This document shows positions 2,680 through 16,596 of a DNA stretch of 64,000 nucleotides, piece by piece. Within the stretch, counting starts at the first letter, position 1; every line of letters starts with the position of its first letter. A model generated the notes under the pieces. That model was not told where the DNA came from. It ran no database searches and saw nothing but the letters and a program-made list of their open reading frames with translations. A program made the translations under genes and the position numbers. Origin of the DNA: an uncultured Clostridia bacterium (GTDB lineage Bacteria; Bacillota; Clostridia; Christensenellales; UBA3700). Location of the stretch: NCBI GenBank assembly GCA_946615965.1, contig CAMOIC010000002.1, forward strand, positions 860-64,859. The letters run 5' to 3'.

Positions 2680-2805
2680 TTCTCCTTTTATGCACTGTAT
2701 GCATATTTTTATGCATAAATATAGCACATAATGTCCCTTAAGAACGACTTTATTATATTAACTACTAAAATAATATTCAATAAAATGTATATAAAATGTA
2801 TAAAT

Positions 2806-2823
2806 TTGAATAAATATACATTT
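2806..2823. promoter_or_regulatory. Candidate ARG box (ArgR/AhrC operator) upstream of argC
   Basis: TTTGAATAAATATACATT matches the E. coli-type ARG box TNTGAATWWWWATTCANW with one mismatch. It lies about 125 nt upstream of the argC start. The background is AT-rich, so a chance match is possible. Confidence 0.3.
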
Positions 2824-2838
2824 TTTGCATAAAAAAAC

Positions 2839-3156
2839 AAGATGGTCTATAAGCCGAGTTCTGTATTAGATGATCATCTGTCTAGACATACTGTTACCAA
2901 TATGTTCAAGCGATTGCGAGACTAGCAGGCTACCTTAACGTCTCTTTCTTGCACCAAGTGGGGTTTACAGGGCTCCCCATGTCACCACGGGGACGGTGAG
3001 CTCTTACCTCGCCTTTCCATCCTTACCATTTCTGGCGGTTTATTTCTGTTGCACTTTCCTTCAAGTCACCTTGACTGGCCGTTAACCAGCACTCTGCCTT
3101 GTGGTGCTCGGACTTTCCTCATTCCTATTAGGACTGCGATCATCTGGCCATCTTGC
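2839..3156 (-). ncRNA. rnpB: RNase P RNA
   Basis: The minus strand reads GCAAGATGGCCAGATGATCGCAGTCC...GAGGAAAGTCCGAGCACCACAAGGCAGAGTGCTGGTTAACGGCCAG...ACAGAACTCGGCTTATAGACCATCTTG. It contains the universal GAGGAAAGTCCG and ACAGAAC.CGGCTTAT motifs and a closing P1 helix (CAAGATGGCC/GGTCTATCTTG-type pairing). The region is visibly more GC-rich than its surroundings. Confidence 0.85.
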
Positions 3157-3194
3157 ATACTTATATTACTATTATATATAAATAAAAGTCAAAA

Positions 3195-3213
3195 AGAATG
3201 CACTATGCACTCT
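3195..3213 (-). terminator. Possible intrinsic terminator at the end of the nrdR-lipoprotein transcript
   Basis: Minus strand AGAGUGCA-UAG-UGCAUUCU forms 8 bp including one G.U, followed by UUUUUG. The hairpin overlaps the stop codon of the lipoprotein gene. Confidence 0.4.
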
Positions 3214-4231
3214 TTCTAACTCTTACAATTGGCAAAAATCCTTTGTATGTTTCTGTATCCCTAAAATCTTCAGATACCAGCGCTGTTGATGAGATATTTC
3301 CTTGTGTTGTTACAAAATAAACAGAGGCAGCATGTTCATTTCCATATGGGGATCTTAACCACCATTCACCATACCTTCTCTCTACTTTGTCTTTTGTTCT
3401 AATTGCAAATAATACACCTTTAGCAATTGCATAATCTGAAACTTCAGTTAATCTTTTATTTGTTGCTATATCTCCACTATCTACAAAGCCATATGTTGAT
3501 CTTGTAGCTTCGTTAACACTTAGTGAATAAATCTTATCTTCTGTATTTTTTTGAACAGATGTAAATGCATTATTATTGTTGTATTTTGTTTTATTATCTA
3601 CAGTTGTTACAACAATATCCTTTACTTGATTTGTATCAAAGGCTTTTTTATAGAAAGTATTAGCAAATTTTCTTAATGTTGAATATTCATAAGAATTAGC
3701 ATATACCCATTTATCTCCGCCGTTATATTTAACGCCTTCATCATCTTTATAGAAATATCTTTCTGTAGAATCTCCTGCAATATTTGCAATGTTTTGGAAA
3801 TTAGTAATATCTAAAATCTTATTTGACATACAAACAAATGCATTGTCTTCTTTTGAATAGATGATATTCCATATAATATCTTCAACAACAAATGCGTATT
3901 CTTGACCTGCAATAACAGAACTACCATTTGAGAATGTAGCATCCTCCACACTAGGTGTTGCTGTAATTATTGCATATGTTTTTCCATTATATTTGTAATA
4001 ACCTGTTGATTCATCATATTCTCCAGTTTTGATATCACTAAGTTCTACATTCTTAGCGATTGTTTGTGGATATGAACCAAAAGATATTTGTTTTGAAGTA
4101 ACAAAAGTATAAGATAAAGAATCTTTCTCTTCTTGTTTTGTATTATCATCTTTCTTACATGCAAACAAACATGTTGAACAAATAATAGATAAAATTATTA
4201 CAACTGAAAATATTTTTATAAACTTTTTCAT
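3203..4231 (-). CDS. Putative lipoprotein, DUF6273-like
   Basis: Signal peptide plus lipobox: MKKFIKIFSVVIILSIICSTCLFA-CKKDD. Shows FGSYPQT and C-terminal YGEWWLRSP motifs that I recall from a family of gut-Firmicute extracellular proteins. The start overlaps the nrdR stop. Confidence 0.55.
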   Translation of the reverse strand: MKKFIKIFSVVIILSIICSTCLFACKKDDNTKQEEKDSLSYTFVTSKQISFGSYPQTIAKNVELSDIKTGEYDESTGYYKYNGKTYAIITATPSVEDATFSNGSSVIAGQEYAFVVEDIIWNIIYSKEDNAFVCMSNKILDITNFQNIANIAGDSTERYFYKDDEGVKYNGGDKWVYANSYEYSTLRKFANTFYKKAFDTNQVKDIVVTTVDNKTKYNNNNAFTSVQKNTEDKIYSLSVNEATRSTYGFVDSGDIATNKRLTEVSDYAIAKGVLFAIRTKDKVERRYGEWWLRSPYGNEHAASVYFVTTQGNISSTALVSEDFRDTETYKGFLPIVRVRKSA

Positions 4232-4689
4232 TATTTCTTCTCTTTTACTAAATCTTTGATTTCAGATAGCCAGCTGTTAATATCTTTAAATTCTCTATAT
4301 ACAGCAGCAAATCTAATATAAGCTACATCATCTAATTTCTTTAAGCCTTCCATAGCATATTCACCAATTTGAGATGATGTTACTTCTTGTTCTAAAGAAT
4401 TAGCAATTTTCTTTTCTATATCATCAACAAGTTTATCTATCTTTTCCATTGGAACAGGACGCTTAGCGCAAGCAGATAAAATACCTTGCTTTAATTTGTT
4501 TCTTGAGAATGGTTGTCTATCTCCATTCTTTTTAATTACAAGGATTGGAGCAATTTCAATAGTTTCATAAGTTGTAAAACGTCTGCCGCATTGCATGCAT
4601 TCACGTCTTCTTCTTATTGATGTTCCATCTTCATTTAATCTACTGTCTATAACTTTACTTTCTAGACATCCACAAAAGCTACATTTCAT
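4231..4689 (-). CDS. nrdR: Transcriptional repressor NrdR
   Basis: MKCSFCGCLESKVIDSRLNEDGTSIRRRRECMQCGRRFTTYE zinc ribbon followed by an ATP-cone. 152 aa. Confidence 0.92.
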   Translation of the reverse strand: MKCSFCGCLESKVIDSRLNEDGTSIRRRRECMQCGRRFTTYETIEIAPILVIKKNGDRQPFSRNKLKQGILSACAKRPVPMEKIDKLVDDIEKKIANSLEQEVTSSQIGEYAMEGLKKLDDVAYIRFAAVYREFKDINSWLSEIKDLVKEKK

Positions 4690-4692
4690 ATA

Positions 4693-6882
4693 TTAACTCC
4701 ATAACCAGAATTTCTTCTTTTTCTTATCGACTTGTTTACTAGTTGTTGTTTGCTTTGGTTTATTAACAGGGTTTGGTGCTTCTACTTTAGCTGCCTTTGT
4801 AGGTGTTGCAGTAGTACTTACGCTTCCTCCCTCATATTGAACCAATCTATCATAATACTCATCAAATAAATTTAAGTTTGGAATAGATATTCTATATTTC
4901 TTTGGAATAGCTTTATATCTATTCTCTAGTTTTGTATATAGTTCCCTACTTGGAACTTTTTCCCTAGGCAATTTAGAGAAATAATTGTTCAAAACATTAG
5001 CATCATTCTTATACTTTTTGTCATAACCATTAGTAAGAGTTTCAGTAAAACCTTTAACATATTTCTTATATTGGTCATCCAAATTCGTATACATCTTTTC
5101 AGCACGAATTAATTGTTCTCTTGTAGGAACTTCTGCTTCTTCAATCTCAGTTAGAACATTCTGAACTCTTGTTATTTCAGTCATCTTCATTTTCTTAGCA
5201 GCATCACCTACAACCTTTCCAATATCGCCTGTTAATTCTTGTTCATCATCAGAAAGGTTCTTATAATCTTCTTGAATTTGAATAATATCATCATAATTTG
5301 GATATTCTTTATTATTCACATAATTCAATCTTGTATTAAAGTCAGAAATCTTATTTTCTCTAATCTTCTTTTTAGCATTTAATATAATTTCTTTTAAGTC
5401 TTCAACATATTTTCTAGAAGCAGGTCCTAGTTTCTCATATAATTGGTGAATTTCTTCAATATCCTCTTCTGTTGGTCTTGGATTAATTCTAAGGTTTTGT
5501 AATGCGGTATTAACTTTTTCTGCACTTAATCTTAAATAATCATCCCTTTCTTTAACTAATCCATCAACGAAGTCCATTTTGCCACTTTGTTTAGCAAATT
5601 TAGATAACACTTTAAAGTTAATCGATTCTTTGAAATTATCATGCATAATAAGCTCTTTTGCACTTTGAGCTTGGAAATCTACAAGCAATTTATAGTACCA
5701 AATTAAGTAGTTCTCAGCATCAATAAGTTCGGCTTTTTTAATTAACTTTCCAGCTTCTTCAAAGTCACCTAAATCTTCAATAGTAACTTTGATGAGTTTT
5801 AATACAGAAACAAGTGCTGGATCCATATGTTCAACTTGCATTCTTCTTGTATCATCTAATGCTTTAGATACTTCTATTCTTTGTTGACCATAAATAGCTT
5901 CCATTAATTTTCTAATGTTATTTCTATTCTCATCAATTTCTTCTTGTTGTTTAGCATCCATATTAATAGGATGAATGATATTATTTAAAGATTCTTCAAT
6001 ATCCTTCATTAATGAGATACCATATTTCAAACCTTGCATATGAGATAACTCAATTGGTAAATCATCTGGAGTAAATCCATCAGTAAAAATAGGAATAATA
6101 CAAGCCTTATTACTACCTGGCTTTGAATCATTTAATTGTAAGAATCTCTTCCATTCGTTTTGTAACCAATGGCTTTCTAGATATTCTTTATGAGAACAAA
6201 TTAATAGCATTACTTTAGCTGTATATAAACCATAATAAATATTTGGTTCATATTCTCTAACTCTAATACCTTTTAGAGACTTTTCACTAAAGAATACTCT
6301 ATATTTTGAAGCAAGCTCAGAGTAGATTTCACTAGCTAAGTCATAATCTGTTGAGAATATGTCTGAATTTAATTCTGTCTTCTTAAAGCAGATAAATACA
6401 TCATATGGTTTTGTCGATTCAATAATCTTAGCTGCTTTTTCACGAGCATCTTCAATAATATTTAATCTATCTTGATAATCTAACAATTTCTCTGGAGATG
6501 TTTTCTTCAGATAATTCATAAATGTTAGATATTGATCAGTCTGTGTTATAGGATTTTCTTTTACTTTAAAGAATGATGGGAATAAATTGCCATTATTATC
6601 TACTTCAAGCATTACTTGTTGATCGCAAAGTAATAATCCCCAATAAGCAGCTGTTAAATCTTCTTCAGGATATTTAGCAATAATTGATTCGTACATAGAT
6701 TTAGCCTTAGAAAAGTCTGCAAATTGTCTTTGAGAATTTGCAATTCTTAAATCAATAAACATCTGGCTATCTGCTTGTCTTTTAGTATATGTGTTACCGC
6801 AAGATTCACAGATGTATAAATCACCCTCTCTTCTACAGTGGGTGCTTAAACATACCGGACATTGAAAGGCTTCTAATTTCAT
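4693..6882 (-). CDS. Zn-ribbon / helical / TIR-domain protein with four 58-aa repeats and a polybasic-aromatic C-terminal tail
   Basis: N-terminal CPVC...CESC ribbon. TIR-like core at about aa 159-290 (YDVFICFKKTE...VMLLICSHKEYLESHWLQNEWKRF). Repeats at about aa 457-680. Ends KKKKKFWLWS. RBS AAGGAG upstream. Confidence 0.75.
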   Translation of the reverse strand: MKLEAFQCPVCLSTHCRREGDLYICESCGNTYTKRQADSQMFIDLRIANSQRQFADFSKAKSMYESIIAKYPEEDLTAAYWGLLLCDQQVMLEVDNNGNLFPSFFKVKENPITQTDQYLTFMNYLKKTSPEKLLDYQDRLNIIEDAREKAAKIIESTKPYDVFICFKKTELNSDIFSTDYDLASEIYSELASKYRVFFSEKSLKGIRVREYEPNIYYGLYTAKVMLLICSHKEYLESHWLQNEWKRFLQLNDSKPGSNKACIIPIFTDGFTPDDLPIELSHMQGLKYGISLMKDIEESLNNIIHPINMDAKQQEEIDENRNNIRKLMEAIYGQQRIEVSKALDDTRRMQVEHMDPALVSVLKLIKVTIEDLGDFEEAGKLIKKAELIDAENYLIWYYKLLVDFQAQSAKELIMHDNFKESINFKVLSKFAKQSGKMDFVDGLVKERDDYLRLSAEKVNTALQNLRINPRPTEEDIEEIHQLYEKLGPASRKYVEDLKEIILNAKKKIRENKISDFNTRLNYVNNKEYPNYDDIIQIQEDYKNLSDDEQELTGDIGKVVGDAAKKMKMTEITRVQNVLTEIEEAEVPTREQLIRAEKMYTNLDDQYKKYVKGFTETLTNGYDKKYKNDANVLNNYFSKLPREKVPSRELYTKLENRYKAIPKKYRISIPNLNLFDEYYDRLVQYEGGSVSTTATPTKAAKVEAPNPVNKPKQTTTSKQVDKKKKKFWLWS

Positions 6883-6891
6883 ATAGAATCT

Positions 6892-8328
6892 CTACTCCTT
6901 ACATTTAAACTCTTGCATTGGTTTTTTCTTGAATTCTATATCCATTAAACCAAGTTGAGTTTTAATTATTTTTCTCATTTCTACTGCAGGCTGTAAGCAA
7001 TATTTCTTAAATAATTCCTTATCTACCTTATCTACATTATCCCAGCATGGGAATAATAATTTAACGAATGCAGTTGTTATTCTCTTTACCGCTTTTGTAT
7101 CTCTTGTATCTGCATCATTTGGCACAACTACAAGTTCATCAACAATTGCTTTTTCTATTACATCTTCTCTAAGAGCATGCATTATTTCTGAGAAATATTC
7201 AGTATTCAATGCCCATCCATTTACTTTCATATTCTCATTCATTCTAGGTACATCCCATCCTTTAATAAATCCGTGGAATCTATCTATTAATGCAGAATCT
7301 TCAAATAACGATGGCAACTCTTCTAGCATGTTAACATTTGTGTCCATCTTTTCTTGTCTTATATTTCCAAGAACGATTACTCCGGCTTTTCCTGCACCTG
7401 ATTTTAGTCCGACATTAAACGTTCCTGATTCAAGATATCCCTTCATTGCACCACGCATTTCATCAATGTCTGGAAACTTAATTGTAGATATCTCATCAAG
7501 TGCTACGTAGTCATAATATGAAACAAGTCCTTCTTGATGCTTATTCATATCATAGAACATTTTTGCTCTTGTCATTACACCGCCAGATACAAGCCATCCT
7601 TTCTTACTAATTTGAGAAAAGATATAACTCTTTCCAGTTCCTTTAGGTGCTAGTTCCATAAGGTTCAATCTTTCTTCAACAAATGGAAGCAATCTTGTAA
7701 GCATTGTTAACTTTTCAAGTTCTGTTTTAAATCCAGCTGCATTGTAATCAATAGCACCTAAGATTACATCTATCCATTCATCAATAGTAAATTGCTCTCT
7801 TGCCTTCTTAAAGAATTCTAGATCTATCTTATATGGTCTAAAATCTTTAAACCCAACAAGAACAATCTTTCCTTCTTGTTTCTTACCTTTAGTTATATTT
7901 TGATATTCTAAATCTAGAATTCCCCAAAACTCGCCATCAGATACAAGGAGTTCTTTTTTATATTTTGTCCAAACACTTTGTGGTATATGTGTTTGTTGGT
8001 ATGTTATCCCAAAATCTGGAAGAGCGAATGTTACTTCAGATGTCTTAATATCTATATTTACTGAAAGCTTAGCTAAAAACCTTACTTTTTCGCCAGATAT
8101 TAATTTATCTAATATGGCATTCCACTCATCTTTACGAGGCATTACGTCTTTAATTTTTTCTAAAACAAAATTAACGTTAACATTTCCATCGGCATCTGCA
8201 TACTTTTTAATAAACCAGTCTCTTATAAAAGCTGGTAAATTAAGAGATGAAAATACACCCTGTAGTGATGACTTTTTAACTATCATCCCATCAAAGCTTT
8301 GTTTTAGCTTTAATTCCACATCGCTCAT
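6892..8328 (-). CDS. BrxL-like AAA+ protein (BREX Lon-like family N-terminal and ATPase regions, no Lon protease domain)
   Basis: 478 aa. Walker A LAPKGTGKSY, Walker B-like YVALDEIS. The blocks FTIDEWIDVILGAI, SALIDRFHGFIKGWDVP and the N-terminal FDGMIVKKSSL...LPAFIRDWF are collinear with BrxL as I remember it. The protein ends where the BrxL protease domain would begin. Confidence 0.65.
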   Translation of the reverse strand: MSDVELKLKQSFDGMIVKKSSLQGVFSSLNLPAFIRDWFIKKYADADGNVNVNFVLEKIKDVMPRKDEWNAILDKLISGEKVRFLAKLSVNIDIKTSEVTFALPDFGITYQQTHIPQSVWTKYKKELLVSDGEFWGILDLEYQNITKGKKQEGKIVLVGFKDFRPYKIDLEFFKKAREQFTIDEWIDVILGAIDYNAAGFKTELEKLTMLTRLLPFVEERLNLMELAPKGTGKSYIFSQISKKGWLVSGGVMTRAKMFYDMNKHQEGLVSYYDYVALDEISTIKFPDIDEMRGAMKGYLESGTFNVGLKSGAGKAGVIVLGNIRQEKMDTNVNMLEELPSLFEDSALIDRFHGFIKGWDVPRMNENMKVNGWALNTEYFSEIMHALREDVIEKAIVDELVVVPNDADTRDTKAVKRITTAFVKLLFPCWDNVDKVDKELFKKYCLQPAVEMRKIIKTQLGLMDIEFKKKPMQEFKCKE

Positions 8329-8340
8329 GTAGATTCTCCT

Positions 8341-9786
8341 TTATAGGCCTAAGTCGTCTTCTTCTAAGCCTTTATTAAATTTAATCTTTTTTCTAGCGAT
8401 TTCATTTTGTGATGAAATAATAACTTCGTACTCTCCTGGTTTTTCAATATTCAATGGTTCAGATACCCATGAATTGAATTTCTTAGAACATAGATAATTT
8501 GCCCCATTTACTTGCAAATATACTTTTTCTAGTTCCTTAGATACAGAAAACTCAACACTTGGCTTCTCCCCTGCCTTCATATTAATAACATCTTCAGCAA
8601 ATGTTACTTCTACAGTTTCATCTTCTTTTTCTTTCTTTACAGTTCCGCCAGTTCTTCCAGCATATTCTTCAAAAGCTTTTAAATCTTTTTGTTTTACTGT
8701 AGGTGGAACTTTAGATAATGCTTTAACAAAATCTTTCATAGTAATATCTGTTAAAACATCAGTCTTAATATAATTGTTTAGAGGATCTTCTTTTGCTCTA
8801 TCACAAACTTCTGCAATATCTGCACCAGAATAACCTTCTGTTACTTTAACAAGCTTCTTAATATCTACATCTTTTCCAAGAGGAACATTATTTAATTGTT
8901 TATTAAACATATATTCTCTTGCTGGAGCATCAGGCAAAGATACATAAATCTTTTCACTAAATCTTCCAGAACGAACAGCTGCACTATCTACATCCCAAGG
9001 TCTATTAGTAGCACCAAGTAATAATAGGTTATCTGTCTTTGATGCAAATCCATCGATTTGTTGTAAGAATTCATTTACACGCTTATCATTGTGCATATCT
9101 TGGCCACGTTGTCCAAATAAAGAATCCATTTCATCAATAAAAATGATAGCAAGCTTATCTTTTTTAGCAGCTTCAAATAATGAAGAAATATTCTTTTCAC
9201 TCTCACCTACATATTTAGATAAGATATCTGATCCTTTAATTGCATAGAATGTAGCACCAACTTCGCCAGCAATGGCTTTTGCTATTAAAGTCTTACCTGT
9301 TCCTGGAGGTCCATATAACAAGACACCACCACCCATTTTCTTACCATACTTGGCATATTTTTCTGGGTACTTAATAGGATTAATCATTCTAGTTAAGATT
9401 GTTTTCTTAACTTCTTCTAGTCCAGCAACATCAGAGAATTTGATATCTGGGATAGCAGAACCTTGCCAAATCTTGCCATTATCTTCATCTTGTTCTTGTT
9501 GTTGACCACCTTGAGAATTATCTCCAGTTCCTGGAACACGTCTAACAGCTGGACGTTTTCTATCTCCACATGCTTCTGCGTTTTCTTGATACATTTTAGC
9601 TTTTTTAATAAGCGATGCCTTTAATTGTTGTGAAGAATATTTACTTGTTTCTAATGCCTTTTGTGCAGCAAGCATATAATACTTCTTAGCAGCAGTATAG
9701 TTGCCAGCAGCCTGACATCTAATTGCATTATTGTAGTAAGTATCCATCATTTCTCTGTAGAAAGACACATCCTTAACTTCAGCCAT
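8341..9786 (-). CDS. Vps4-like AAA+ ATPase (MIT-like N-domain, linker, AAA core, extra C-terminal beta-rich domain)
   Basis: MIT-like three-helix N-terminus YYNNAIRCQAAGNYTAAKKYYMLAAQKALETSKY...KKAKMYQENAEAC. Walker A GPPGTGKT, pore loop KYVGESEK, Walker B IIFIDEMD, ATNRPWDVDSAAVRSGRF. About 100 aa of unrelated C-terminal sequence. Confidence 0.8.
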   Translation of the reverse strand: MAEVKDVSFYREMMDTYYNNAIRCQAAGNYTAAKKYYMLAAQKALETSKYSSQQLKASLIKKAKMYQENAEACGDRKRPAVRRVPGTGDNSQGGQQQEQDEDNGKIWQGSAIPDIKFSDVAGLEEVKKTILTRMINPIKYPEKYAKYGKKMGGGVLLYGPPGTGKTLIAKAIAGEVGATFYAIKGSDILSKYVGESEKNISSLFEAAKKDKLAIIFIDEMDSLFGQRGQDMHNDKRVNEFLQQIDGFASKTDNLLLLGATNRPWDVDSAAVRSGRFSEKIYVSLPDAPAREYMFNKQLNNVPLGKDVDIKKLVKVTEGYSGADIAEVCDRAKEDPLNNYIKTDVLTDITMKDFVKALSKVPPTVKQKDLKAFEEYAGRTGGTVKKEKEDETVEVTFAEDVINMKAGEKPSVEFSVSKELEKVYLQVNGANYLCSKKFNSWVSEPLNIEKPGEYEVIISSQNEIARKKIKFNKGLEEDDLGL

Positions 9787-9796
9787 TTATTACCCC

Positions 9797-10390
9797 TTAG
9801 TTGTTATTTGTTTCTTTAATCTTTTTGCTAATTTCATCTAATTGCTTATCAATATCATCATCACTAACTTCATCCATAGCTAGTTCTTGATCGATAAGAC
9901 TATTAATTTCGTCATCAGAAATGGCATTTGTATCACCTGTATGAGCATTGAACTCTCCTTCTGACATATCTAGATAAATATCCATTTGTTCAGTTTGAGT
10001 TTGAACACCTTCCATAGCGGCTTCAAATTGTTGTTGAACTTTAGCAAAGTCCTTAGAATTTGTTAACTTTGTCATTTCCTTAGATAAAAGACTTAAACCA
10101 CCTAAGAATTCATGAGTCATAACTGTCATATCTTTCATTTGAGAAGTGATTTCAAAGTTCAATAACATCTCTTGAGCTCTTTTTTGTTGAGCCATAGTCA
10201 TTTTTAAACCAGTAACAGCTAAATTATATTGGTTCATTAAACCAAGCTTTTTAGCACGCTTTGCTGCTGAGATATATACTTTCTTTTGATCTTCTAGTTT
10301 AGAAATTTGTTTATTCATTTGGTTAATAGTCTTTTTAACCAACATTTTCTTTTCTATTTCTTTCTCTTGTTTAGTTTTAAATAATCCCAT
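9797..10390 (-). CDS. ESCRT-III superfamily protein, Vps2/Vps24/CHMP3-like
   Basis: 197 aa. MGLFKTKQEKEIEKK N-terminus, then a basic helical hairpin (AAKRAKKLGLMNQYNLAVTGLKMTMAQQKRAQEM), then KDFAKVQQQFEAAMEGVQTQTEQMDIYLD, and an acidic C-terminus ending in an amphipathic DDDIDKQLDEISKKIKE helix. Confidence 0.65.
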   Translation of the reverse strand: MGLFKTKQEKEIEKKMLVKKTINQMNKQISKLEDQKKVYISAAKRAKKLGLMNQYNLAVTGLKMTMAQQKRAQEMLLNFEITSQMKDMTVMTHEFLGGLSLLSKEMTKLTNSKDFAKVQQQFEAAMEGVQTQTEQMDIYLDMSEGEFNAHTGDTNAISDDEINSLIDQELAMDEVSDDDIDKQLDEISKKIKETNNN

Positions 10391-11007
10391 TATTCGTCAG
10401 TCTCCTCAAATTCTTTTTCTATTAATCCTGCTTCACCGCTTTCTTCAACGGCAGCAATTGTTTCTTCTTGTTCTGCAGTATCTTGCTCTTCAAACATAGC
10501 AAGTAATTGATCATCATTCTTACCTGCACCGTAAATTGTTTCATTTAAATCATATTGCATTGCAACTTCATTAAATGTATCGTCAGATGTTGTTAATATA
10601 TCTTCTTCCTTAACTCTTAAATTCAATGCCTTATTTAAGTACTTAGCAAGTGCCTTTTGGTCACCTAATAACTTATTAATTGGAATTTTACCTGTATTTG
10701 CATAGAATTCCTTATCTTCCATAGCATCCTTTAACTTATTCATTAAGTTGATGTTATAGACAAGATACATACCTCTTTGTGCATCACGTTGTTTTTGAGC
10801 TTTTAGGTAATTAATCTTCTTTGCATATAAAAGTCTTATCTCTTGAGATTTCTCAGCTTTACCCTTCTTTAAAAGTTCTTCAATTTCAGCTGTCTTTTCT
10901 ACAATGCCATCTTCGATAGCTTCTTGTTCTTTCTCAAGTTTGATAATAGAATTTACAACTTCTTCTCTTTTTAATTTCTTAAATCTAAAATATGATAAGA
11001 ATCCCAC
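10390..11007 (-). CDS. ESCRT-III superfamily protein, Snf7/CHMP4-like
   Basis: 205 aa. MGFLSYFRFKK N-terminus, coiled-coil hairpin LLKKGKAEKSQEIRLLYAKKINYLKAQKQRDAQ, and a strongly acidic tail (EEQDTAEQEETIAAVEESGE...EFEETDE). The stop overlaps the start of the next gene. Confidence 0.55.
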   Translation of the reverse strand: MGFLSYFRFKKLKREEVVNSIIKLEKEQEAIEDGIVEKTAEIEELLKKGKAEKSQEIRLLYAKKINYLKAQKQRDAQRGMYLVYNINLMNKLKDAMEDKEFYANTGKIPINKLLGDQKALAKYLNKALNLRVKEEDILTTSDDTFNEVAMQYDLNETIYGAGKNDDQLLAMFEEQDTAEQEETIAAVEESGEAGLIEKEFEETDE

Positions 11008-11018
11008 AAATAGCCTCC

Positions 11019-11372
11019 TTATTCGTTCGCGCGTCTTTCAACAACTAATTGATTTAAATCTCTTAAATTGTGATTAAGCGCTAAATCACTTCTTAATTTT
11101 CCTCTAGACAAGATTAGCTTTAGAGAATCCAATTTATCTGATATCTCTTTATCTATTCTCTCTACTTCTTCTGAAACAACAGGATTTGAATATTTAATTT
11201 CGATATATAAATCCTTTAATTGTTGTTCAATAGAATGATTACTCTTTGCTAAAACAATTAGCATATTAATCTTTTCTGCATTTTTATCTAAAGTTTTCTT
11301 AACTTGCATAACTTTAGCAACATGTGCAGGAGAGATATCTATAATTTCTTTATCTTTAACAAATAATCCCAT
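11019..11372 (-). CDS. Small all-helical protein sharing the MGLF N-terminus (function unknown)
   Basis: 117 aa, MGLFVKDKEII..., heptad-like helical sequence. Start overlaps the stop of the SPFH gene (TAATG). No family recognised. Confidence 0.45.
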   Translation of the reverse strand: MGLFVKDKEIIDISPAHVAKVMQVKKTLDKNAEKINMLIVLAKSNHSIEQQLKDLYIEIKYSNPVVSEEVERIDKEISDKLDSLKLILSRGKLRSDLALNHNLRDLNQLVVERRANE

Positions 11373-12193: not shown

Positions 12194-12222
12194 ATTTTAT
12201 ATTAAATATTTAAGTCAGTCAA
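12194..12222 (-). promoter_or_regulatory. Sigma-A-type promoter of the seven-gene operon
   Basis: Minus strand TTGACT (12222-12217), 17 nt, TAAAAT (12199-12194), about 50 nt upstream of the TTG start. The -35 lies inside the perfect palindrome GTCAATATTGAC (12218-12229). Confidence 0.5.
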
Positions 12223-12360: not shown

Positions 12361-13686
12361 TTAGATGTTTCTGTTCATCATTCTTGAAAGCCAAGGAGCA
12401 GTCTTCTTACCTTGTGGGTTTGTTGTTGGCTGTGGTTGGCTTGGTTGAACAGTTTGTTGTACAGGTTGAACTGGTTGTTGTGGTTGTTGTTGGTTTTGTC
12501 CAAAAACTGAATCATAACTTACAGGTCTTGCTGTAAATCCAGGATATGCTTGATAACCACCTGGGATTGGTTGTCTATATTGAGGTTGTTGAGGTTGTTG
12601 CTCATAATCTTTATCTGCAGCTACCTCTGCACCTTCTGTACCAATAATGTGTTGAGATACATGGTAAGTACTTGCAAATGTAGAATTATCCATAATTGCA
12701 TGATCACCATATTGGTTCTTGTAGTTCTTGAATGGGCTTCTTTGTTGATTCTCTTCAAATCCAGTAGCAACAATAAGAACTTTAACCTTATCTCCGAAGC
12801 TTTCTTCAAATCCTGTACCAAAGATAATGTTTGCATCAGCAGATACACATCTTCTTACAAGTTGCGAAGCATCATTAGCTTCTTTTAATCCTAATGTGTT
12901 ACCACCAACGATATATAGTAATACGCCAGTAGCACCAGAAATATTTGTATCTAGTAAGTTGCTCATAATAGCAGTTTCAACAGCCTTTCTTGTTTTATCT
13001 TTACCTTCAGCTTCTCCAATTGCTAAGTGAGCCATTCCTTTTCCTTTCATAATTGTCTTTACATCAGCAAAGTCAAGATTCAACTTTGTAGATGTTGCAA
13101 TAAGGTCTGTTAAACCTCTAATTGCATCTCTAAGTACAGTATCAGCATGCTTAAATGCGCCCATAAAGCTTACATTGTCACCTAAAACCTTTAATAAGTT
13201 GTTATTAGGAATAACAATCATAGAATCTACGTTTTCTTTTAATTGAGCGATACCTGATTCTGCGTTCTTCATTCTTACAGCACCTTCAAATTCAAAAGGT
13301 TTTGTAACAACGGCAACTGTTAAAATGTTCTTTTCCTTAGCCATTTGAGCAATAACCGGAGCTGCACCAGTTCCAGTACCACCACCCATTCCGGCTGTGA
13401 TAAATAACATATCAACATCGTTTAAATAGTCTCTAATTTCATCTCTTGACTCTTCTGCTGCGCCTTTACCAACGTCTGGTCTAGCACCTGCACCAAGTCC
13501 CTTTGTTGTTGTTTTACCAATAGCAATCTTATGAGGTGCTTTAGAAACCTCTAATGCTTGGCCATCAGTATTAACTGCAACGAATTCTGCGCTGTCAACT
13601 CCAGCTTCGATCATTGAATCAACGGCGTTACAACCGCCACCGCCGACACCCATTACTAGGATTTTTGCTCTTTTGTTCTCTGACAT
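12361..13686 (-). CDS. ftsZ: Cell division protein FtsZ
   Basis: ILVMGVGGGGCNAV, GGGTGTGAAPV and a Q/P-rich linker, with C-terminal peptide APWLSRMMNRN. I prefer the ATG at 13686 behind AGGAGGG over the track start at 13737, which would overlap ftsA. Confidence 0.95.
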   Translation of the reverse strand: MSENKRAKILVMGVGGGGCNAVDSMIEAGVDSAEFVAVNTDGQALEVSKAPHKIAIGKTTTKGLGAGARPDVGKGAAEESRDEIRDYLNDVDMLFITAGMGGGTGTGAAPVIAQMAKEKNILTVAVVTKPFEFEGAVRMKNAESGIAQLKENVDSMIVIPNNNLLKVLGDNVSFMGAFKHADTVLRDAIRGLTDLIATSTKLNLDFADVKTIMKGKGMAHLAIGEAEGKDKTRKAVETAIMSNLLDTNISGATGVLLYIVGGNTLGLKEANDASQLVRRCVSADANIIFGTGFEESFGDKVKVLIVATGFEENQQRSPFKNYKNQYGDHAIMDNSTFASTYHVSQHIIGTEGAEVAADKDYEQQPQQPQYRQPIPGGYQAYPGFTARPVSYDSVFGQNQQQPQQPVQPVQQTVQPSQPQPTTNPQGKKTAPWLSRMMNRNI

Positions 13687-13702
13687 ATTATACCCTCCTA
13701 TG

Positions 13703-14839
13703 TTAGAACAACTTGTTCCATATGCTTTGATTTTCATTTATTTCATACGCTACATCAAGCAAAGCAATAAACGATGTATAGTATGGTTTATCAAATCCAT
13801 TAATTCCAGGAACTCTACCTTTAACTCTTCTCTTTAATTTCTTTTCAAGATACAATAAAGCTCCCTTTATACCAGAAATTCCACCGCCAGTTAAATATAT
13901 TGGTGTGGATTCAGAGACAACTCCGCTTTCTTGGTTAATTGATGTATTCACAAAGTCAACAATCTCATCTAATCTTTGCATAATTGAATTATTAATATCT
14001 GTTGCTTTGTATGTTTTTATTCTATTTTGCGAATTAACAGTGTATAAAGCTCCTTCTGCAAATACAAAATCAAGATTAATTGAGTTTTGTATAGCTAATG
14101 CTTCTTCAAATTCAACTCCAAGTTGCATAGATAAAGTATTAAAAATACTTCCAGTTCCAAGAGGAGCAGAATATTGAGCAATAATACCTTCGCCCTTTAC
14201 TAAAGCTAAAGATGTTGAACCAAATCCAATATCTAGGCTTAGTACACCATAATTTCTTGATTCTTCATCTATAAACTTTGTACTTACAACCCAAGAAGAA
14301 CATAAATACTTTGTATGCTCAATTCCTAGTTCACTAAGTATAAAGTCAAAATATTGCATAAATTGTTTTGAAACATACATGTAAGATATTGTGGCTCTAA
14401 TAGTTGTAGCTCTCTCACCGTATGGATCAATTGTTTCTTTTACTTCATCAAGAACATATCTAACAGCTGCAGAAGAAATTAATTCCCATTCTGGATCGTT
14501 ATTAACATCTCCTCTTTTATGAATTTCATCAATCATAGAAGAAGTTACAAGTTTTTCTCTTCCATAATTAACGAAATAACTCTTAGTCTCAATTTTTGAG
14601 AATTCTACAGGAACTGAAATATAAACGCACTTAGGCATCTTTTGAATGCCACTAGCTTTAATGCAATTATGTACGTCATCTTCAAGTCCATCTAAATTAC
14701 AAAATTCAGACTCATAATATCCTTGATAAGGTACACATGAGAAATTAGAAACTGAGATAACTCCAAGAGAATTTTTGGAGCCCGTAGCAAAAACTAGTTT
14801 GCCTGATCCGATATCTAAAACAGCAACTTCTTTACCCAT
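13703..14839 (-). CDS. ftsA: Cell division protein FtsA (divergent)
   Basis: Actin-fold motifs VLDIGSGK and LDIGFGSTS..., TGGG near the C-terminus, amphipathic end SIWNKLF. Located immediately upstream of ftsZ. Confidence 0.8.
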   Translation of the reverse strand: MGKEVAVLDIGSGKLVFATGSKNSLGVISVSNFSCVPYQGYYESEFCNLDGLEDDVHNCIKASGIQKMPKCVYISVPVEFSKIETKSYFVNYGREKLVTSSMIDEIHKRGDVNNDPEWELISSAAVRYVLDEVKETIDPYGERATTIRATISYMYVSKQFMQYFDFILSELGIEHTKYLCSSWVVSTKFIDEESRNYGVLSLDIGFGSTSLALVKGEGIIAQYSAPLGTGSIFNTLSMQLGVEFEEALAIQNSINLDFVFAEGALYTVNSQNRIKTYKATDINNSIMQRLDEIVDFVNTSINQESGVVSESTPIYLTGGGISGIKGALLYLEKKLKRRVKGRVPGINGFDKPYYTSFIALLDVAYEINENQSIWNKLF

Positions 14840-14912: not shown

Positions 14913-15680
14913 TTATAAATTTTCTGAATAAATTACATTAATTTCTTGTTCATCTGGAATATTTTGAACAATTATGTATCCAGAAGACTTTTCAAGATCA
15001 TTTAGTTTCATATATTTCGTATAAGCGTAATTGAAATAATCACCTAAAGCTAATGTGTTATTTTCTAGCACAAAAGTTACACCTGTATTTATTTGTAGGT
15101 ATATTTTGCCTAAATTTCCTTCACTTGCTTCTTCAAAAGTAATACTTGGAATCAAAGTAGCAAATCTTGCATTAACAAAAGAAAGACCTTCTGCCTCAGT
15201 AACAATATTTGAAAGCCAACCAATTTTACAGAAAGCGCCAAGTTGAACTGTATCAATCAATGTACCAGAAATGATTGTTACATAAGGATATTTAACTTCA
15301 GTAACAAGCTCTAAAACCTTTAGTTCTCTATCTAATAATGCATAAGAACCATCAGTTAAAGGCATAGCAAACTCTGGAGTTCTTTTTGAAACATTAATAC
15401 TTACTTTTGATGGAAATTTTCTCTCAATAGAAATTACTTTAACATAAGGATGTAATGATTCTATATTTGACATTGCCACATCTTCAGCCAAACTAAACAT
15501 ATTAGAATGCAAAACAATCTTACTATCTTCGATAATTTGAGCTTCTTCTGAAGCAGTTAAATGTAAATCAGATGTAGCCTCAACGGTAATAGAATTAACC
15601 ATAAATAACAAACTGGTAATAACAATCAATGCTATTACAGTAAAGATTACTATTAAAGAAACTAGAGCCTTTTTATTCAT
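14913..15680 (-). CDS. ftsQ: FtsQ/DivIB-like division protein
   Basis: N-terminal TM segment followed by POTRA-like VKVISIERKFPSKVSINVSKRTPEFAM. Located upstream of ftsA. Confidence 0.65.
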   Translation of the reverse strand: MNKKALVSLIVIFTVIALIVITSLLFMVNSITVEATSDLHLTASEEAQIIEDSKIVLHSNMFSLAEDVAMSNIESLHPYVKVISIERKFPSKVSINVSKRTPEFAMPLTDGSYALLDRELKVLELVTEVKYPYVTIISGTLIDTVQLGAFCKIGWLSNIVTEAEGLSFVNARFATLIPSITFEEASEGNLGKIYLQINTGVTFVLENNTLALGDYFNYAYTKYMKLNDLEKSSGYIIVQNIPDEQEINVIYSENL

Positions 15681-15801: not shown

Positions 15802-16596
15802 TTAACCAAAGATTTCCCCTACTTTATCGCATAAACCATCAAACCAGTTTGTTGTTGTATCATATTCATAATCAACAACCTTAGCTGTTTTTTCTAATAC
15901 TTCAGAATTACCATTTTGATCTACAGTATAGTAAACTGTATCAGCTGAATATGCAGCAGTAGCAGCAGTAGCAGCGGATACTTCTGTAGCACCTGTAGCA
16001 GCAACAACATTTACGATAATTAAAGTTGCGCATACAGCAATAATAAAGAAGTAAACTGCGATAAGTAACTTTGTCATCTTATTCTTTGATCTACTCTTTT
16101 GTGGAGCAATCTTTTCATACTCTGGAGCATAAACAGCTTGATCCATTGAAGAATATTGATATGAAGCTACGTTATTTTGTGCTTGAGCGTAATAGTTTTG
16201 AGCTTGATATCCTGTTGTATATGTTGGTTGATAAGTATTTGCATAATTATATGTAGGTGCTTGATATCCAGCATTAAATGTTGGTTCTGCATATGTAGCA
16301 TTGTTAGCATATGTTTGATAATTTTGAGCTTGTTGATATGAAGGTGCTTGTTGATATGAATTAACTTGTTGATTCATATATTGAGCTTCATAGTTGTTAA
16401 CAGGAGCTACATTATCGCTAACTGGTGCTTGCATATAAATATCATTTGGCACTTGATATGTAGATCTAATATTAGGAGTATAGTTTGGAACTTCTGAGTA
16501 ATTAGATACTCTACCAGAATATGCTGAATATGAATTGTATTGAGGAACTGATGTTTCTCTTCTTTGAACTCTATCAATTGTTGTTGATTCGTACAT
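15802..16596 (-). CDS. Q/N/Y-rich single-pass membrane protein in the FtsL/PBP slot of the dcw cluster
   Basis: 264 aa. About 165 aa of low complexity (NYEAQYMNQQVNSYQQAPSYQQAQNYQTY...), one TM (LLIAVYFFIIAVCATLIIVNVV) and a roughly 65-aa C-terminal ectodomain. Confidence 0.5.
   Translation of the reverse strand: MYESTTIDRVQRRETSVPQYNSYSAYSGRVSNYSEVPNYTPNIRSTYQVPNDIYMQAPVSDNVAPVNNYEAQYMNQQVNSYQQAPSYQQAQNYQTYANNATYAEPTFNAGYQAPTYNYANTYQPTYTTGYQAQNYYAQAQNNVASYQYSSMDQAVYAPEYEKIAPQKSRSKNKMTKLLIAVYFFIIAVCATLIIVNVVAATGATEVSAATAATAAYSADTVYYTVDQNGNSEVLEKTAKVVDYEYDTTTNWFDGLCDKVGEIFG

Follow-up and report, generated by a model that had tools for sequence, protein, structure and literature searches.

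The window, a stretch of 64,000 nucleotides from an uncultured Clostridia bacterium (contig CAMOIC010000002.1), carries on its minus strand a compact block of genes that includes a tandem pair encoding proteins of 197 and 205 aa (Table 1). The two ORFs of about 200 aa that the initial annotation had placed here were found on that strand at the coordinates it gave, and independent gene calls in public assemblies returned the same two genes. A ribosome-binding site, AGGAGG, lies ahead of the GTG with which the 205-aa gene begins, and the stop codon of this gene overlaps the start of the 197-aa gene in the sequence TAATG, an arrangement from which the two genes are predicted to be translationally coupled. 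Database searches recovered 549 and 142 relatives of the two families at E <= 1e-3, and, among related loci found with the A1 profile, the pair was retained in every one of the 58 species-level loci of Christensenellales type whose flanks were complete; because of this breadth and constancy, the two genes are not chance ORFs.

Table 1. Features of the locus in window coordinates, listed in the direction of transcription.
Feature	Position	Strand	Details
Promoter-like site, candidate module promoter	12194..12222	-	TTGACT, 17-nt spacer, TAAAAT; 10/12 consensus matches; in the ftsZ-SPFH gap
SPFH (Band_7_1) protein with C-terminal zinc ribbon, 254 aa	11372..12136	-	Pfam Band_7_1 E 1.6e-19, Zn_Ribbon_1 E 3e-7; first gene of the module
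Small conserved protein, 117 aa	11019..11372	-	MGLF start; without a family match
205-aa protein gene	10390..11007	-	GTG start; putative divergent ESCRT-III-like subunit, acidic tail
DDQLLAMFEE motif, aa 165-174 of the 205-aa protein	10486..10515	-	Conserved (DDxLLAMFE); candidate partner-binding helix
197-aa protein gene	9797..10390	-	ATG start; probable Snf7-type ESCRT-III subunit, nearest the Vps2/Vps24/CHMP1 (A-type) group
MIM1-like amphipathic C-terminal helix, aa 177-192 of the 197-aa protein	9815..9862	-	DDDIDKQLDEISKKIK; pattern match
Vps4-like ATPase, 481 aa	8341..9786	-	MIT-like domain, linker, one AAA, Vps4_C helix, extra C-terminal domain of ~100 aa
MIT-like three-helix domain, aa 1-76 of the ATPase	9559..9786	-	Profile of 21 orthologous N-termini
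Short BrxL-like ATPase, 478 aa, accessory	6892..8328	-	TIGR02688 E 5.5e-130; PADLOC BrxL E 2e-201
TIR-domain protein, 729 aa, accessory	4693..6882	-	N-terminal zinc ribbon, TPR-like region; Pfam TIR_2 E 1.5e-9

Analysis of the 197-aa family supported its assignment to Snf7-type ESCRT-III. Pfam Snf7 (PF03357) was matched by 28 of 96 diverse relatives of the protein (best E 1.4e-9). A diverse profile of the family searched against PDB sequences matched CHMP2A first (E 1.8e-6), then CHMP3, CHMP1B, Vps24 and CdvB, with about ten CHMP, Vps24 and CdvB sequences recovered at E <= 10, and hhalign against six CHMP/Snf7 ESCRT-III proteins gave 96.3% (P 1.7e-9). The matches to ESCRT-III in both the PDB search and hhalign were full-length and collinear. 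Sequence identity to eukaryotic ESCRT-III is approximately 13-20%. Within the superfamily the family lies closer to CHMP3, CHMP2A and CHMP1B (96.5% by hhalign) than to Snf7, CHMP4B and CHMP6 (57.8%), in agreement with the CHMP3-like call made from the sequence earlier. The strings quoted for that call (MGLFKTKQEKEIEKK, AAKRAKKLG and LLKKGKAEKSQEIRLLYAKKINYLKAQKQR) are present in the translations, and the N-terminus quoted for CHMP3 proved correct, reading MGLFGKTQEKPPKELVNEW in PDB chain 3frv_A, which aligned from profile position 1. The protein begins with MGLFK, a putative N-terminal membrane-insertion motif, followed by a basic N-terminal half and an acidic tail; the charge asymmetry pointed out in the initial annotation amounts to +10 within the first 100 residues and -16 in the remainder, with corresponding values of +4 and -17 for the 205-aa protein. 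Structure prediction with AF2 placed helices at residues 7-49, 52-109, 113-149, 159-174 and 177-195, a layout that would fit open-state ESCRT-III, in a model of low confidence (pLDDT 63.7). ESCRT-III structures made up ten of the top 11 Foldseek matches to this model, with a best E of 0.019 and no match reaching E <= 0.001.

Since MGLF-type N-termini also occur in PspA and Vipp1, we considered whether both proteins are instead PspA/Vipp1-type stress proteins with an SPFH partner, as in the pspA-ydjGHI operon of Bacillus subtilis, a reading to which the SPFH Band_7_1 and zinc-ribbon neighbour lends some weight by its parallel with the PspA partner described in the literature (PMC11237479, PMC8581546). 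The comparison of the Snf7 and PspA_IM30 profiles, however, came out on the Snf7 side for the 197-aa family. Three sets of family members (29, 27 and 96 sequences) did not have PspA_IM30 (PF04012) among their listed families, PDB profile searches with the 197-aa and 205-aa families returned no PspA or Vipp1 chain at E <= 10, and hhalign values against PspA were 0.4-1.1% across the two families, with 0.7% for the 197-aa family and 0.4-0.7% in further comparisons against the Escherichia coli protein. Vipp1 also ranked under ESCRT-III in the Foldseek search with the 197-aa model. We therefore regard a PspA/Vipp1 identity of the pair as highly improbable.

The ESCRT-III signal emerged only with a diverse profile, built from relatives at 25-60% identity that were collected in an exhaustive search of representatives. 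As a single sequence the window's 197-aa protein reached Pfam Snf7 at E 6.2, under the cut-off, and single-sequence scans of the 197-, 205- and 117-aa proteins against Pfam, NCBIfam, PADLOC and PHROGs gave nothing usable. The narrow profiles A1 and A2, made from close homologues only, found no ESCRT-III match among PDB sequences and gave 0.4% when aligned with each other by hhalign. These results, together with the low AF2 confidence, are what might be expected if the pair were generic charged coiled-coils whose resemblance to ESCRT-III is compositional. The data for the 197-aa family already contradict that explanation: reversed-sequence controls, keeping both composition and helical periodicity, gave 0.1-1.2% by hhalign as against 96% for the real sequences, and the matches run collinearly over the full length. 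Other small helical proteins of the operon scored 0.2-1.4%, and the gene context includes an MIT-AAA ATPase. For the pair as a whole we find a purely compositional origin scarcely credible.

The C-terminal tail of the 197-aa family resembles MIM1 in its pattern of hydrophobic, x3, hydrophobic, x2, hydrophobic, K/R. Within the last 35 aa, 79 of 83 orthologues contained this pattern, compared to 4.6 expected; the somewhat degenerate copy in the window has S instead of K/R. The 205-aa family, with the pattern in none of 79 members, has its own conserved C-terminal element, the DDQLLAMFEE motif, in which D165, D166, L168, L169, F172 and E173 are invariant or almost so in the A2 alignment.

The evidence for the 205-aa family is indirect and indicates a divergent relative of ESCRT-III, linked to the superfamily by way of the 197-aa family and a Thermococcus protein. 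Profile, Pfam and Foldseek searches gave no direct match of this family to Pfam Snf7 or to PDB structures, and hhalign against eukaryotic ESCRT-III references reached at most 9%, so that the CHMP4/Snf7 assignment suggested for this protein in the initial annotation was not borne out. AF2 predicted a helical hairpin (residues 14-51 and 55-97; pLDDT 74-89) in a model of low overall confidence (pLDDT 67), to which Foldseek matched unspecific helical bundles only, none at E <= 0.001. Alignment of the 205-aa with the 197-aa family by hhalign was full-length at 74.5% (E 2.7e-5) and rose to 88-89% in local mode, compared to 0.6-0.7% for the reversed control; the match was strengthened once relatives from Planctomycetota and Thermococcus were included. 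In an earlier comparison of the two families, the real score of 28.1 exceeded those of block shuffles (15-24, maximum 23.7) and of the reversed sequence (14), and part of it could be traced, by block-shuffle and rotation controls, to short N-terminal and acidic motifs. Two proteins of an archaeal ESCRT locus from Thermococcus, T201 (E 2.1e-14) and T198 (E 2.3e-6), matched the 205-aa family, and T201 aligned collinearly, though weakly, with Pfam Snf7 (E 0.64).

Immediately downstream of the pair lies a gene for an ATPase whose predicted architecture is that of Vps4, with an MIT-like domain, a single AAA domain and Vps4_C. Pfam AAA was matched at E 6.8e-42 and Vps4_C at 33.7 bits (cut-off 21.3; profile positions 28-57 of 61), and both domains also appear in the public annotation. 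The best PDB match of the profile of N-termini was the MIT domain of a Saprolegnia chitin synthase (2mpk; E 4.7e-4, residues 17-73 to 11-68), followed more weakly by 2w2u (E 0.16) and the VPS4A MIT domain (E 0.3); 2w2u was deposited as a hypothetical p60 katanin and is the MIT domain of a Sulfolobus Vps4-like protein. As a single sequence the N-terminus gave a weak Pfam MIT match (E 0.49). The core and lid of the ATPase appear more similar to the D2 domain of Cdc48/p97 than to Vps4. The lid region scored 59-69 bits to p97/Cdc48 D2 as against 38 to Vps4, and the NCBIfam CdvC model, which aligns over its full length (residues 10-376 to 7-365 of 370), scored 208 against a cut-off of 650, with competing scores of 234 for CDC48 and 218 for FtsH. 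The Vps4-like ATPase, the SPFH gene and the operon as a whole had not figured in the initial annotation.

The core of this operon is strongly conserved. In the 58 full-flank loci the ATPase gene was present without exception, as was the 205-aa gene, and the upstream SPFH gene was found in 56; identity of the 197-aa protein ranged from 53 to 74% across approximately 80 species, and related cassettes occur in Planctomycetota. The family of the 117-aa protein was present in 69 loci. We considered this family and a 119-aa family as extra ESCRT-III-like subunits and ruled both out by hhalign (0.2-0.3% for the 117-aa family).

The accessory genes are more variable. Searches with the TIR protein of the window detected TIR genes in 21 of the 58 loci, where they separate the 197-aa gene from the ATPase gene in eight and lie downstream in nine and upstream in four, and BrxL was found in eight loci. 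Differences in length among the TIR proteins (541, 612 and 729 aa) were at first sight suggestive of hypervariability, a candidate that we rejected since the shorter products end at contig ends; TRF detected one short array only in the TIR gene (period 23, 2.3 copies). In a PADLOC scan of nine module and adjacent proteins, BrxL was the sole BREX component, which argues against membership of the module in a BREX system.

The module in the window follows directly after ftsQ-like, ftsA and ftsZ genes on the same strand, and the same arrangement was seen in the loci of the three closest species (L004, L024 and L033), raising the possibility that it is a cell-division accessory and works together with FtsZ and FtsA, in the way that ESCRT-III serves abscission in archaea and eukaryotes. 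We reject this link because adjacency to ftsZ was found in only three of the 58 full-flank loci. The other loci inspected had unrelated neighbours, either metabolic or ribosomal. In the window, ftsZ and the SPFH gene are 224 bp apart, with a promoter-like site in the gap, and in the window's clade the block simply lies between ftsZ and nrdR. A primary role in division is thus very unlikely.

We propose, as the rather likely explanation of these data, that the pair supplies the filament subunits of a bacterial module of ESCRT-III/Vps4 type for membrane remodelling, and that this module is sometimes wired to immune-type genes. In roughly one species in three the operon includes TIR genes, and sometimes BrxL-like or protease genes, which points to a possible coupling of the polymer, or of the state of the membrane, to an immune-type output. 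It should be noted that the TIR and BrxL neighbours could mean that the primary role is defence and not housekeeping remodelling.

An anti-phage or conflict system would overlap with the explanation we propose and differ from it in the primary role: the polymer and ATPase would detect membrane damage or mend it, or would serve as a switch, thereby controlling TIR (NAD-consuming), BrxL-like and protease effectors. The insertion of TIR genes between those for the 197-aa protein and the ATPase is consistent with such a role, as are the BrxL-like genes and a gene for a trypsin-like protease after the ATPase gene in one locus (L001), the unrelated genome contexts of the module in different species, and the occurrence of relatives of the 197-aa family fused to RuvB-like AAA+ with a NERD nuclease or to FtsK-type ATPases. 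The ATPase also matched PADLOC models of IetA at E 3.3e-40, but it was the only one of the core proteins to match PADLOC, and it did so through generic AAA similarity (IetA, TRIP13 and others). Moreover, no TIR gene was detected with the window's query in 37 of the 58 loci and no BrxL in 50, and conservation of the core over so many species fits a lineage-wide housekeeping function and not patchy defence islands. None of 50,697 phage records matched the module, and of 72,556 plasmids a single one did, from an archaeon. On balance, defence as the primary role seems unlikely.

The homology of the module's parts, by indirect links in the case of the 205-aa protein, its domain architecture and the conservation of its motifs and of its operon are results of computation; membrane binding, co-polymerisation, contact between MIT and MIM, ATP-driven disassembly and the physiological role are what we infer for the membrane-remodelling module. 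In this model the SPFH/zinc-ribbon protein would mark or organise a patch of the cytoplasmic membrane, to which the 205-aa and 197-aa proteins would bind through their hydrophobic-basic N-termini and basic helical hairpins and on which they might co-polymerise in the manner of composite ESCRT-III polymers. The MIT domain of the ATPase may then dock on the acidic C-terminal tails, especially on the MIM1-like helix of the 197-aa subunit, and ATP-powered extraction of subunits would drive turnover of the polymer, leading to membrane repair, scission or vesicle formation.

The literature places Snf7-type ESCRT-III with a Vps4 ATPase in archaea and eukaryotes and credits bacteria with PspA/Vipp1 only, a distribution that would be altered by a conserved bacterial operon with Snf7-type subunits, an MIT-AAA ATPase and a MIM-like tail. 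We found no description of this module in the literature on bacterial Vps4, bacterial Snf7, or ESCRT-III and anti-phage defence, coverage of which was incomplete. More tentatively, and with slightly less than even confidence, we suggest that a complete ESCRT-III/Vps4-type machine, comprising two distinct ESCRT-III subunits, an MIT-AAA ATPase and an SPFH platform, is stably kept across a whole lineage of gut Clostridia (Christensenellales-type), with related cassettes in Planctomycetota, that it was acquired from or is shared with euryarchaea, and that immune effectors of TIR and BrxL type are coupled to it in some of the species. If so, horizontal exchange of ESCRT genes between archaea and bacteria would become testable, new SPFH-ESCRT and TIR-ESCRT connections would be added, and bacteria would offer a model for ESCRT-driven membrane repair tied to immunity. 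For the regulation of bacterial polymers of the ESCRT-III superfamily, the operon would provide a defined five-gene system in which to study ATP-driven turnover.

Comparison of the module with known systems revealed likenesses to several of them. As in eukaryotic ESCRT-III/Vps4, the 197-aa family aligns over its full length with CHMP3, CHMP2A and CHMP1B, combines an MGLF-type N-terminus with a basic hairpin and an acidic tail, and has a MIM1-like C-terminal helix that would suit the MIT domain of the adjoining ATPase. In contrast to the eukaryotic system, the module comes without ESCRT-0, -I and -II and without a link to ubiquitin, and its second subunit cannot be put in the Snf7/CHMP4 group. 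The module shares with the crenarchaeal Cdv system the combination of ESCRT-III-like subunits with an MIT-AAA ATPase that the CdvC model spans entirely, and CdvB and CdvB2 were among the weak PDB and Foldseek matches of the 197-aa family. It differs from Cdv in that the CdvC score falls well below the model's cut-off, no CdvA-like gene was recognised, no winged-helix domain is predicted in either subunit (both AF2 models are all-helical) and the organism has FtsZ and FtsA.

With PspA/Vipp1 systems such as pspA-ydjGHI, the module has in common the superfamily, an SPFH (Band_7_1) and zinc-ribbon partner and, plausibly, a role in membrane stress, whereas its subunits appear to be of the Snf7 and not the PspA_IM30 type and it has a dedicated MIT-AAA ATPase. 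SPFH proteins with a zinc ribbon are known both as the PspA partner in B. subtilis and as an ESCRT partner in Methanobacteriales (PMC11237479, PMC10936438).

All three core proteins have counterparts in a plasmid locus of Thermococcus peptonophilus (L090), an example of the euryarchaeal 'Main'-clade systems of Vps4 plus ESCRT-III, in which several ESCRT-III-like genes lie beside the ATPase gene, as they do here. The Thermococcus protein T188 matched the 197-aa family at E 4.6e-26, and the AAA+Vps4_C ATPase of this locus is 31.6% identical to that of the window over its whole length. The host here is, in contrast, bacterial, and the ATPase core appears nearer to Cdc48 D2. The Thermococcus locus also contains genes for a Ser/Thr kinase and a PP2C phosphatase, which are often a trait of archaeal 'Main'-clade ESCRT systems (Makarova et al. 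2024, PMC10936438). The proteins of the module, and such flanking ORFs as were scanned, contained neither a kinase nor a phosphatase domain, and no gene similar to arCOG09748 or arCOG08177 of the 'Main' clade (PMC10936438) was recognised in the module, as judged without arCOG models. Unlike the 'Main' clade, the module has an SPFH Band_7_1/zinc-ribbon gene and the 117-aa protein, together with TIR and BrxL-like genes whose presence varies. By these features the module would fall outside the archaeal 'Main'-clade ESCRT systems (PMC10936438).

Among bacteria, a 2025 review states that a Vps4-like ATPase appears to be absent (PMC7619361), and Ravi et al. (2024, PMC11237479) reported bacterial Vps4-like AAA+ genes, which they attributed to transfer from archaea and in which, by their account, an unrelated TPR plus 6TM protein takes the place of Snf7. 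In contrast to the loci of Ravi et al., the operon described here has kept two ESCRT-III-like genes beside its ATPase gene.

Profile comparisons identified the 197-aa protein as a Snf7-type ESCRT-III protein rather than a PspA homologue, upholding the superfamily reading of the initial annotation through a diverse-family profile, hhalign, and Pfam Snf7 matches among relatives. As a single sequence the protein matched no curated model in Pfam or NCBIfam, and a profile of its close homologues matched no ESCRT-III chain among the PDB sequences. An exhaustive profile search of the family yielded 488 cluster representatives (E ≤ 1e-3), and the diverse alignment held 96 full-length members with 25-60% identity to the window protein. 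Pfam Snf7 was matched by 28 of these 96 members (best E 1.4e-9); each other Pfam family was matched by at most three, and PspA_IM30 was absent from the families listed. Among PDB sequences, the diverse profile matched CHMP2A (E 1.8e-6; profile 7-143 to chain residues 4-143) and, more weakly, CHMP3, CHMP1B, Vps24 and CdvB, with no PspA or Vipp1 chain at E ≤ 10.

The same alignment was compared by hhalign with six eukaryotic ESCRT-III proteins and E. coli PspA, using reference sequences in which Pfam confirmed Snf7 or PspA_IM30 domains. Probability was 96.3% for all six ESCRT-III proteins (P 1.7e-9, 147 columns), 96.5% for CHMP3, CHMP2A and CHMP1B (P 7.5e-10, 158 columns), 57.8% for Snf7, CHMP4B and CHMP6 (P 1e-4, 100 columns) and 0.7% for PspA (P 0.083, 20 columns), with reversed-sequence controls at or below 0.9%. 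The low-confidence AF2 model (pLDDT 63.7) placed helices at residues 7-49, 52-109, 113-149, 159-174 and 177-195, a predicted layout that fits the open ESCRT-III form. ESCRT-III chains made up 10 of its 11 top Foldseek matches, none at E ≤ 0.001, including both chains of the CHMP2A-CHMP3 polymer, CHMP1B, Asgard ESCRT-IIIB, Loki CHMP4-7 and CdvB; Vipp1 ranked below these chains.

Other features first noticed in the gene pair were borne out. Both ORFs are present and are called in public assemblies, the charge asymmetry is +10, then −16 in the 197-aa protein and +4, then −17 in the 205-aa protein, and the CHMP3 N-terminus given for comparison is correct. The 205-aa stop and the 197-aa ATG share TAATG, so the genes are translationally coupled, and the GTG start has an AGGAGG site in front. 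The 197-aa orthologues end in an amphipathic helix (consensus IDKEmEELRKKI), slightly degenerate in the window's copy. The tail pattern hydrophobic-x3-hydrophobic-x2-hydrophobic-K/R was present in 79 of 83 orthologues, where shuffled tails predict 4.6, and in no member of the 205-aa family, which has a conserved DDxLLAMFE motif instead. The MIM1 consensus is (D/E)xxLxxRLxxL(K/R), by which we take the tail helix to be MIM1-like.

The 197-aa protein probably has a very divergent paralogue in the 205-aa protein. The proposed place of the latter in the Snf7/CHMP4 (B-type) group stays putative, with hhalign at ≤9% against the eukaryotic ESCRT-III references, but a distant relationship to the 197-aa family did emerge. 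The 205-aa family matched nothing in Pfam or the PDB, and Foldseek matches of its model were unspecific. With close homologues only, hhalign gave 0.4% between the two families and 3.2% against the diverse 197-aa alignment. An enlarged 205-aa alignment reached 15% over 165 collinear columns (reversed controls 0.2%), although block shuffles showed that part of this score comes from short terminal motifs. Addition of relatives from Planctomycetota cassettes (91.4% probability) raised the match with the diverse 197-aa alignment to 74.5% (E 2.7e-5, 151 collinear columns), and our own alignments gave 88-89% (P ~2e-6; reversed control 0.6-0.7%). These relatives, together with counterparts in a Thermococcus ESCRT locus, increase confidence in the kinship. 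One such cassette, on a metagenome contig whose relatives are named Planctomycetota (L084), encodes two 205-aa relatives (261-881 and 900-1484), an AAA ATPase, a 197-aa family member (2765-3367) and a second AAA ATPase; thus ESCRT-III-like and AAA cassettes extend beyond Clostridia.

The Thermococcus locus lies on the T. peptonophilus plasmid NZ_CP014751.1 (11010-25471), the sole plasmid match of the 197-aa protein among 72,556 records. It encodes one 197-aa family member (T188, E 4.6e-26; Pfam Snf7 E 4.2e-4) and two from the 205-aa family (T201, E 2.1e-14; T198, E 2.3e-6), each ~190-200 aa, and an AAA+Vps4_C ATPase with 31.6% full-length identity to the window ATPase. Therefore, both subunit types adjoin in a recognised archaeal ESCRT system.

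In the window ATPase, a single AAA domain is accompanied by an AAA lid and a Vps4_C helix that exceeds the Pfam threshold; the NCBIfam CdvC model aligned along the whole protein with a score far under cut-off. Its N-terminal 76 residues were weakly MIT-like as a single sequence, and a profile of 21 orthologous N-termini found the MIT domain 2mpk as best PDB match (E 4.7e-4, full domain) and, more weakly, the 2w2u chain and VPS4A MIT domains. Because its AAA core and lid resemble Cdc48/p97 D2 more closely than Vps4, the ATPase is Vps4-like in architecture but may or may not belong to the Vps4 clade. Orthologues are mostly 360-400 aa, the size of CdvC, with 480-520 aa in ~13 of 78; like a minority of them, the window ATPase carries an additional C-terminal domain of ~100 aa, in which aa 392-470 weakly matched DUF7862 (E 0.0013). 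The ATPase also matched PADLOC IetA (E 3.3e-40).

Features of the module and its surroundings in the window
Feature	Position	Strand
264-aa protein	15802-16596	-
FtsQ-type POTRA protein	14913-15680	-
FtsA	13703-14839	-
FtsZ	12361-13737	-
SPFH (Band_7_1) + zinc ribbon, 254 aa	11372-12136	-
117-aa protein	11019-11372	-
205-aa protein	10390-11007	-
197-aa protein	9797-10390	-
AAA ATPase, 481 aa	8341-9786	-
Additional C-terminal domain of the AAA ATPase	8377-8613	-
Short BrxL-like ATPase, 478 aa	6892-8328	-
TIR-domain protein, 729 aa	4693-6882	-
NrdR	4231-4689	-
DUF6273 protein, 342 aa	3203-4231	-
RNase P RNA	2834-3155	-

The window is low-GC (~32%) bacterial chromosome with a class A bacterial RNase P RNA, a large SRP RNA and tRNA-Gln, and homologues of the studied genes came from gut MAGs of Christensenellales, Eubacteriales and other Clostridia. 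A genome scan yielded 80 species-level loci, 58 with full flanks; all 58 contained the 205-aa gene and the ATPase, 56 the SPFH gene, 21 the TIR gene and eight the BrxL-like gene. A cell-division role for the module is unlikely: ftsZ and nrdR flank the whole block in the window's clade, but elsewhere its neighbours are unrelated, with ftsZ adjacency in three of the 58 loci.

FtsA is divergent (28.3 bits to Pfam FtsA, cut-off 31.8), and the C-terminal linker of FtsZ is long and Q/P-rich. An ftsZ start placed too far upstream may alone explain the 35-nt ftsA/ftsZ overlap in the mechanical ORF list: public gene calls make FtsZ 441 aa long, compared to 458 aa for the ORF. Upstream of the ftsQ-like gene, the 264-aa protein weakly matched only DUF6320; its N-terminal half is long, of low complexity and Q/N/Y-rich, and a membrane segment is predicted. 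The DUF6273 gene, next after nrdR and directly upstream of the RNase P RNA, encodes a protein with 34-35% identity in the closest relatives, compared to 88-90% for NrdR.

The module may have a defence-linked role, given the TIR, BrxL and protease genes added to it and the fusions of the 197-aa family to RuvB-like/NERD and FtsK-type ATPases. The phage collection (50,697 records) gave no match. The TIR gene varies in position; in eight loci it separates the 197-aa gene from the ATPase. The BrxL-like ATPase, flanked in the window by the genes for the Vps4-like ATPase and the TIR protein, is a short form (BrxL_N + BrxL_ATPase) with no protease domain, and no other BREX component was matched among nine nearby proteins scanned. 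A gene for a trypsin-like serine protease (L001:12123-12899) directly follows the Vps4-like ATPase in one locus of Eubacteriales type, ahead of BrxL and TIR, an arrangement reminiscent of the ATPase and protease pairing of IetAS. The 197-aa relatives form N-terminal domains on six RuvB-like AAA+ modules (RuvB_N + RuvB_C; P0283, P0284, P0303, P0316, P0341, P0377), two with a C-terminal NERD nuclease domain, and on three FtsK/SpoIIIE ATPases (P0288, P0289, P0292); in several, the N-terminal part reached or nearly reached the Pfam Snf7 threshold (27.3, 24.5 bits). Such covalent fusions of ESCRT-III-like domains to DNA-type motor ATPases were unexpected.

One or two small genes separate the SPFH and 205-aa genes, and their products showed no relation to ESCRT-III by hhalign. 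Most loci encode a 119-aa protein there (L014:8997-9356; equivalents in 39 loci) with the motif ADAYWGLMLEKFQ; its gene is absent from the window. The similarity of this motif to TAAYWGLLLCDQQ in the window TIR protein (~aa 75-95) suggests that the 119-aa protein and the TIR N-terminal region share a TPR-like module.

The best-supported reading, based on homology, architecture and conservation, is that the module would constitute a bacterial ESCRT-III/Vps4-like membrane-remodelling system; the mechanistic steps beyond these we infer. The SPFH protein would serve as a platform, the 197-aa and 205-aa proteins as two co-expressed ESCRT-III-type subunits forming a polymer, and the MIT-AAA ATPase would dock on the acidic tails, the polymer being turned over. 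Our search of the searchable, incomplete literature found no published description of the module. A Vps4-like ATPase is stated to be apparently missing from bacteria (PMC7619361). Vps4-like transfers to bacteria in which Snf7 is replaced are reported (PMC11237479). For the SPFH link there are parallels in B. subtilis, where the partner is PspA, and in Methanobacteriales, where it is ESCRT (PMC11237479, PMC10936438). The Thermococcus ESCRT locus encodes a Ser/Thr kinase and a PP2C phosphatase, a feature shared with the 'Main' clade (PMC10936438).
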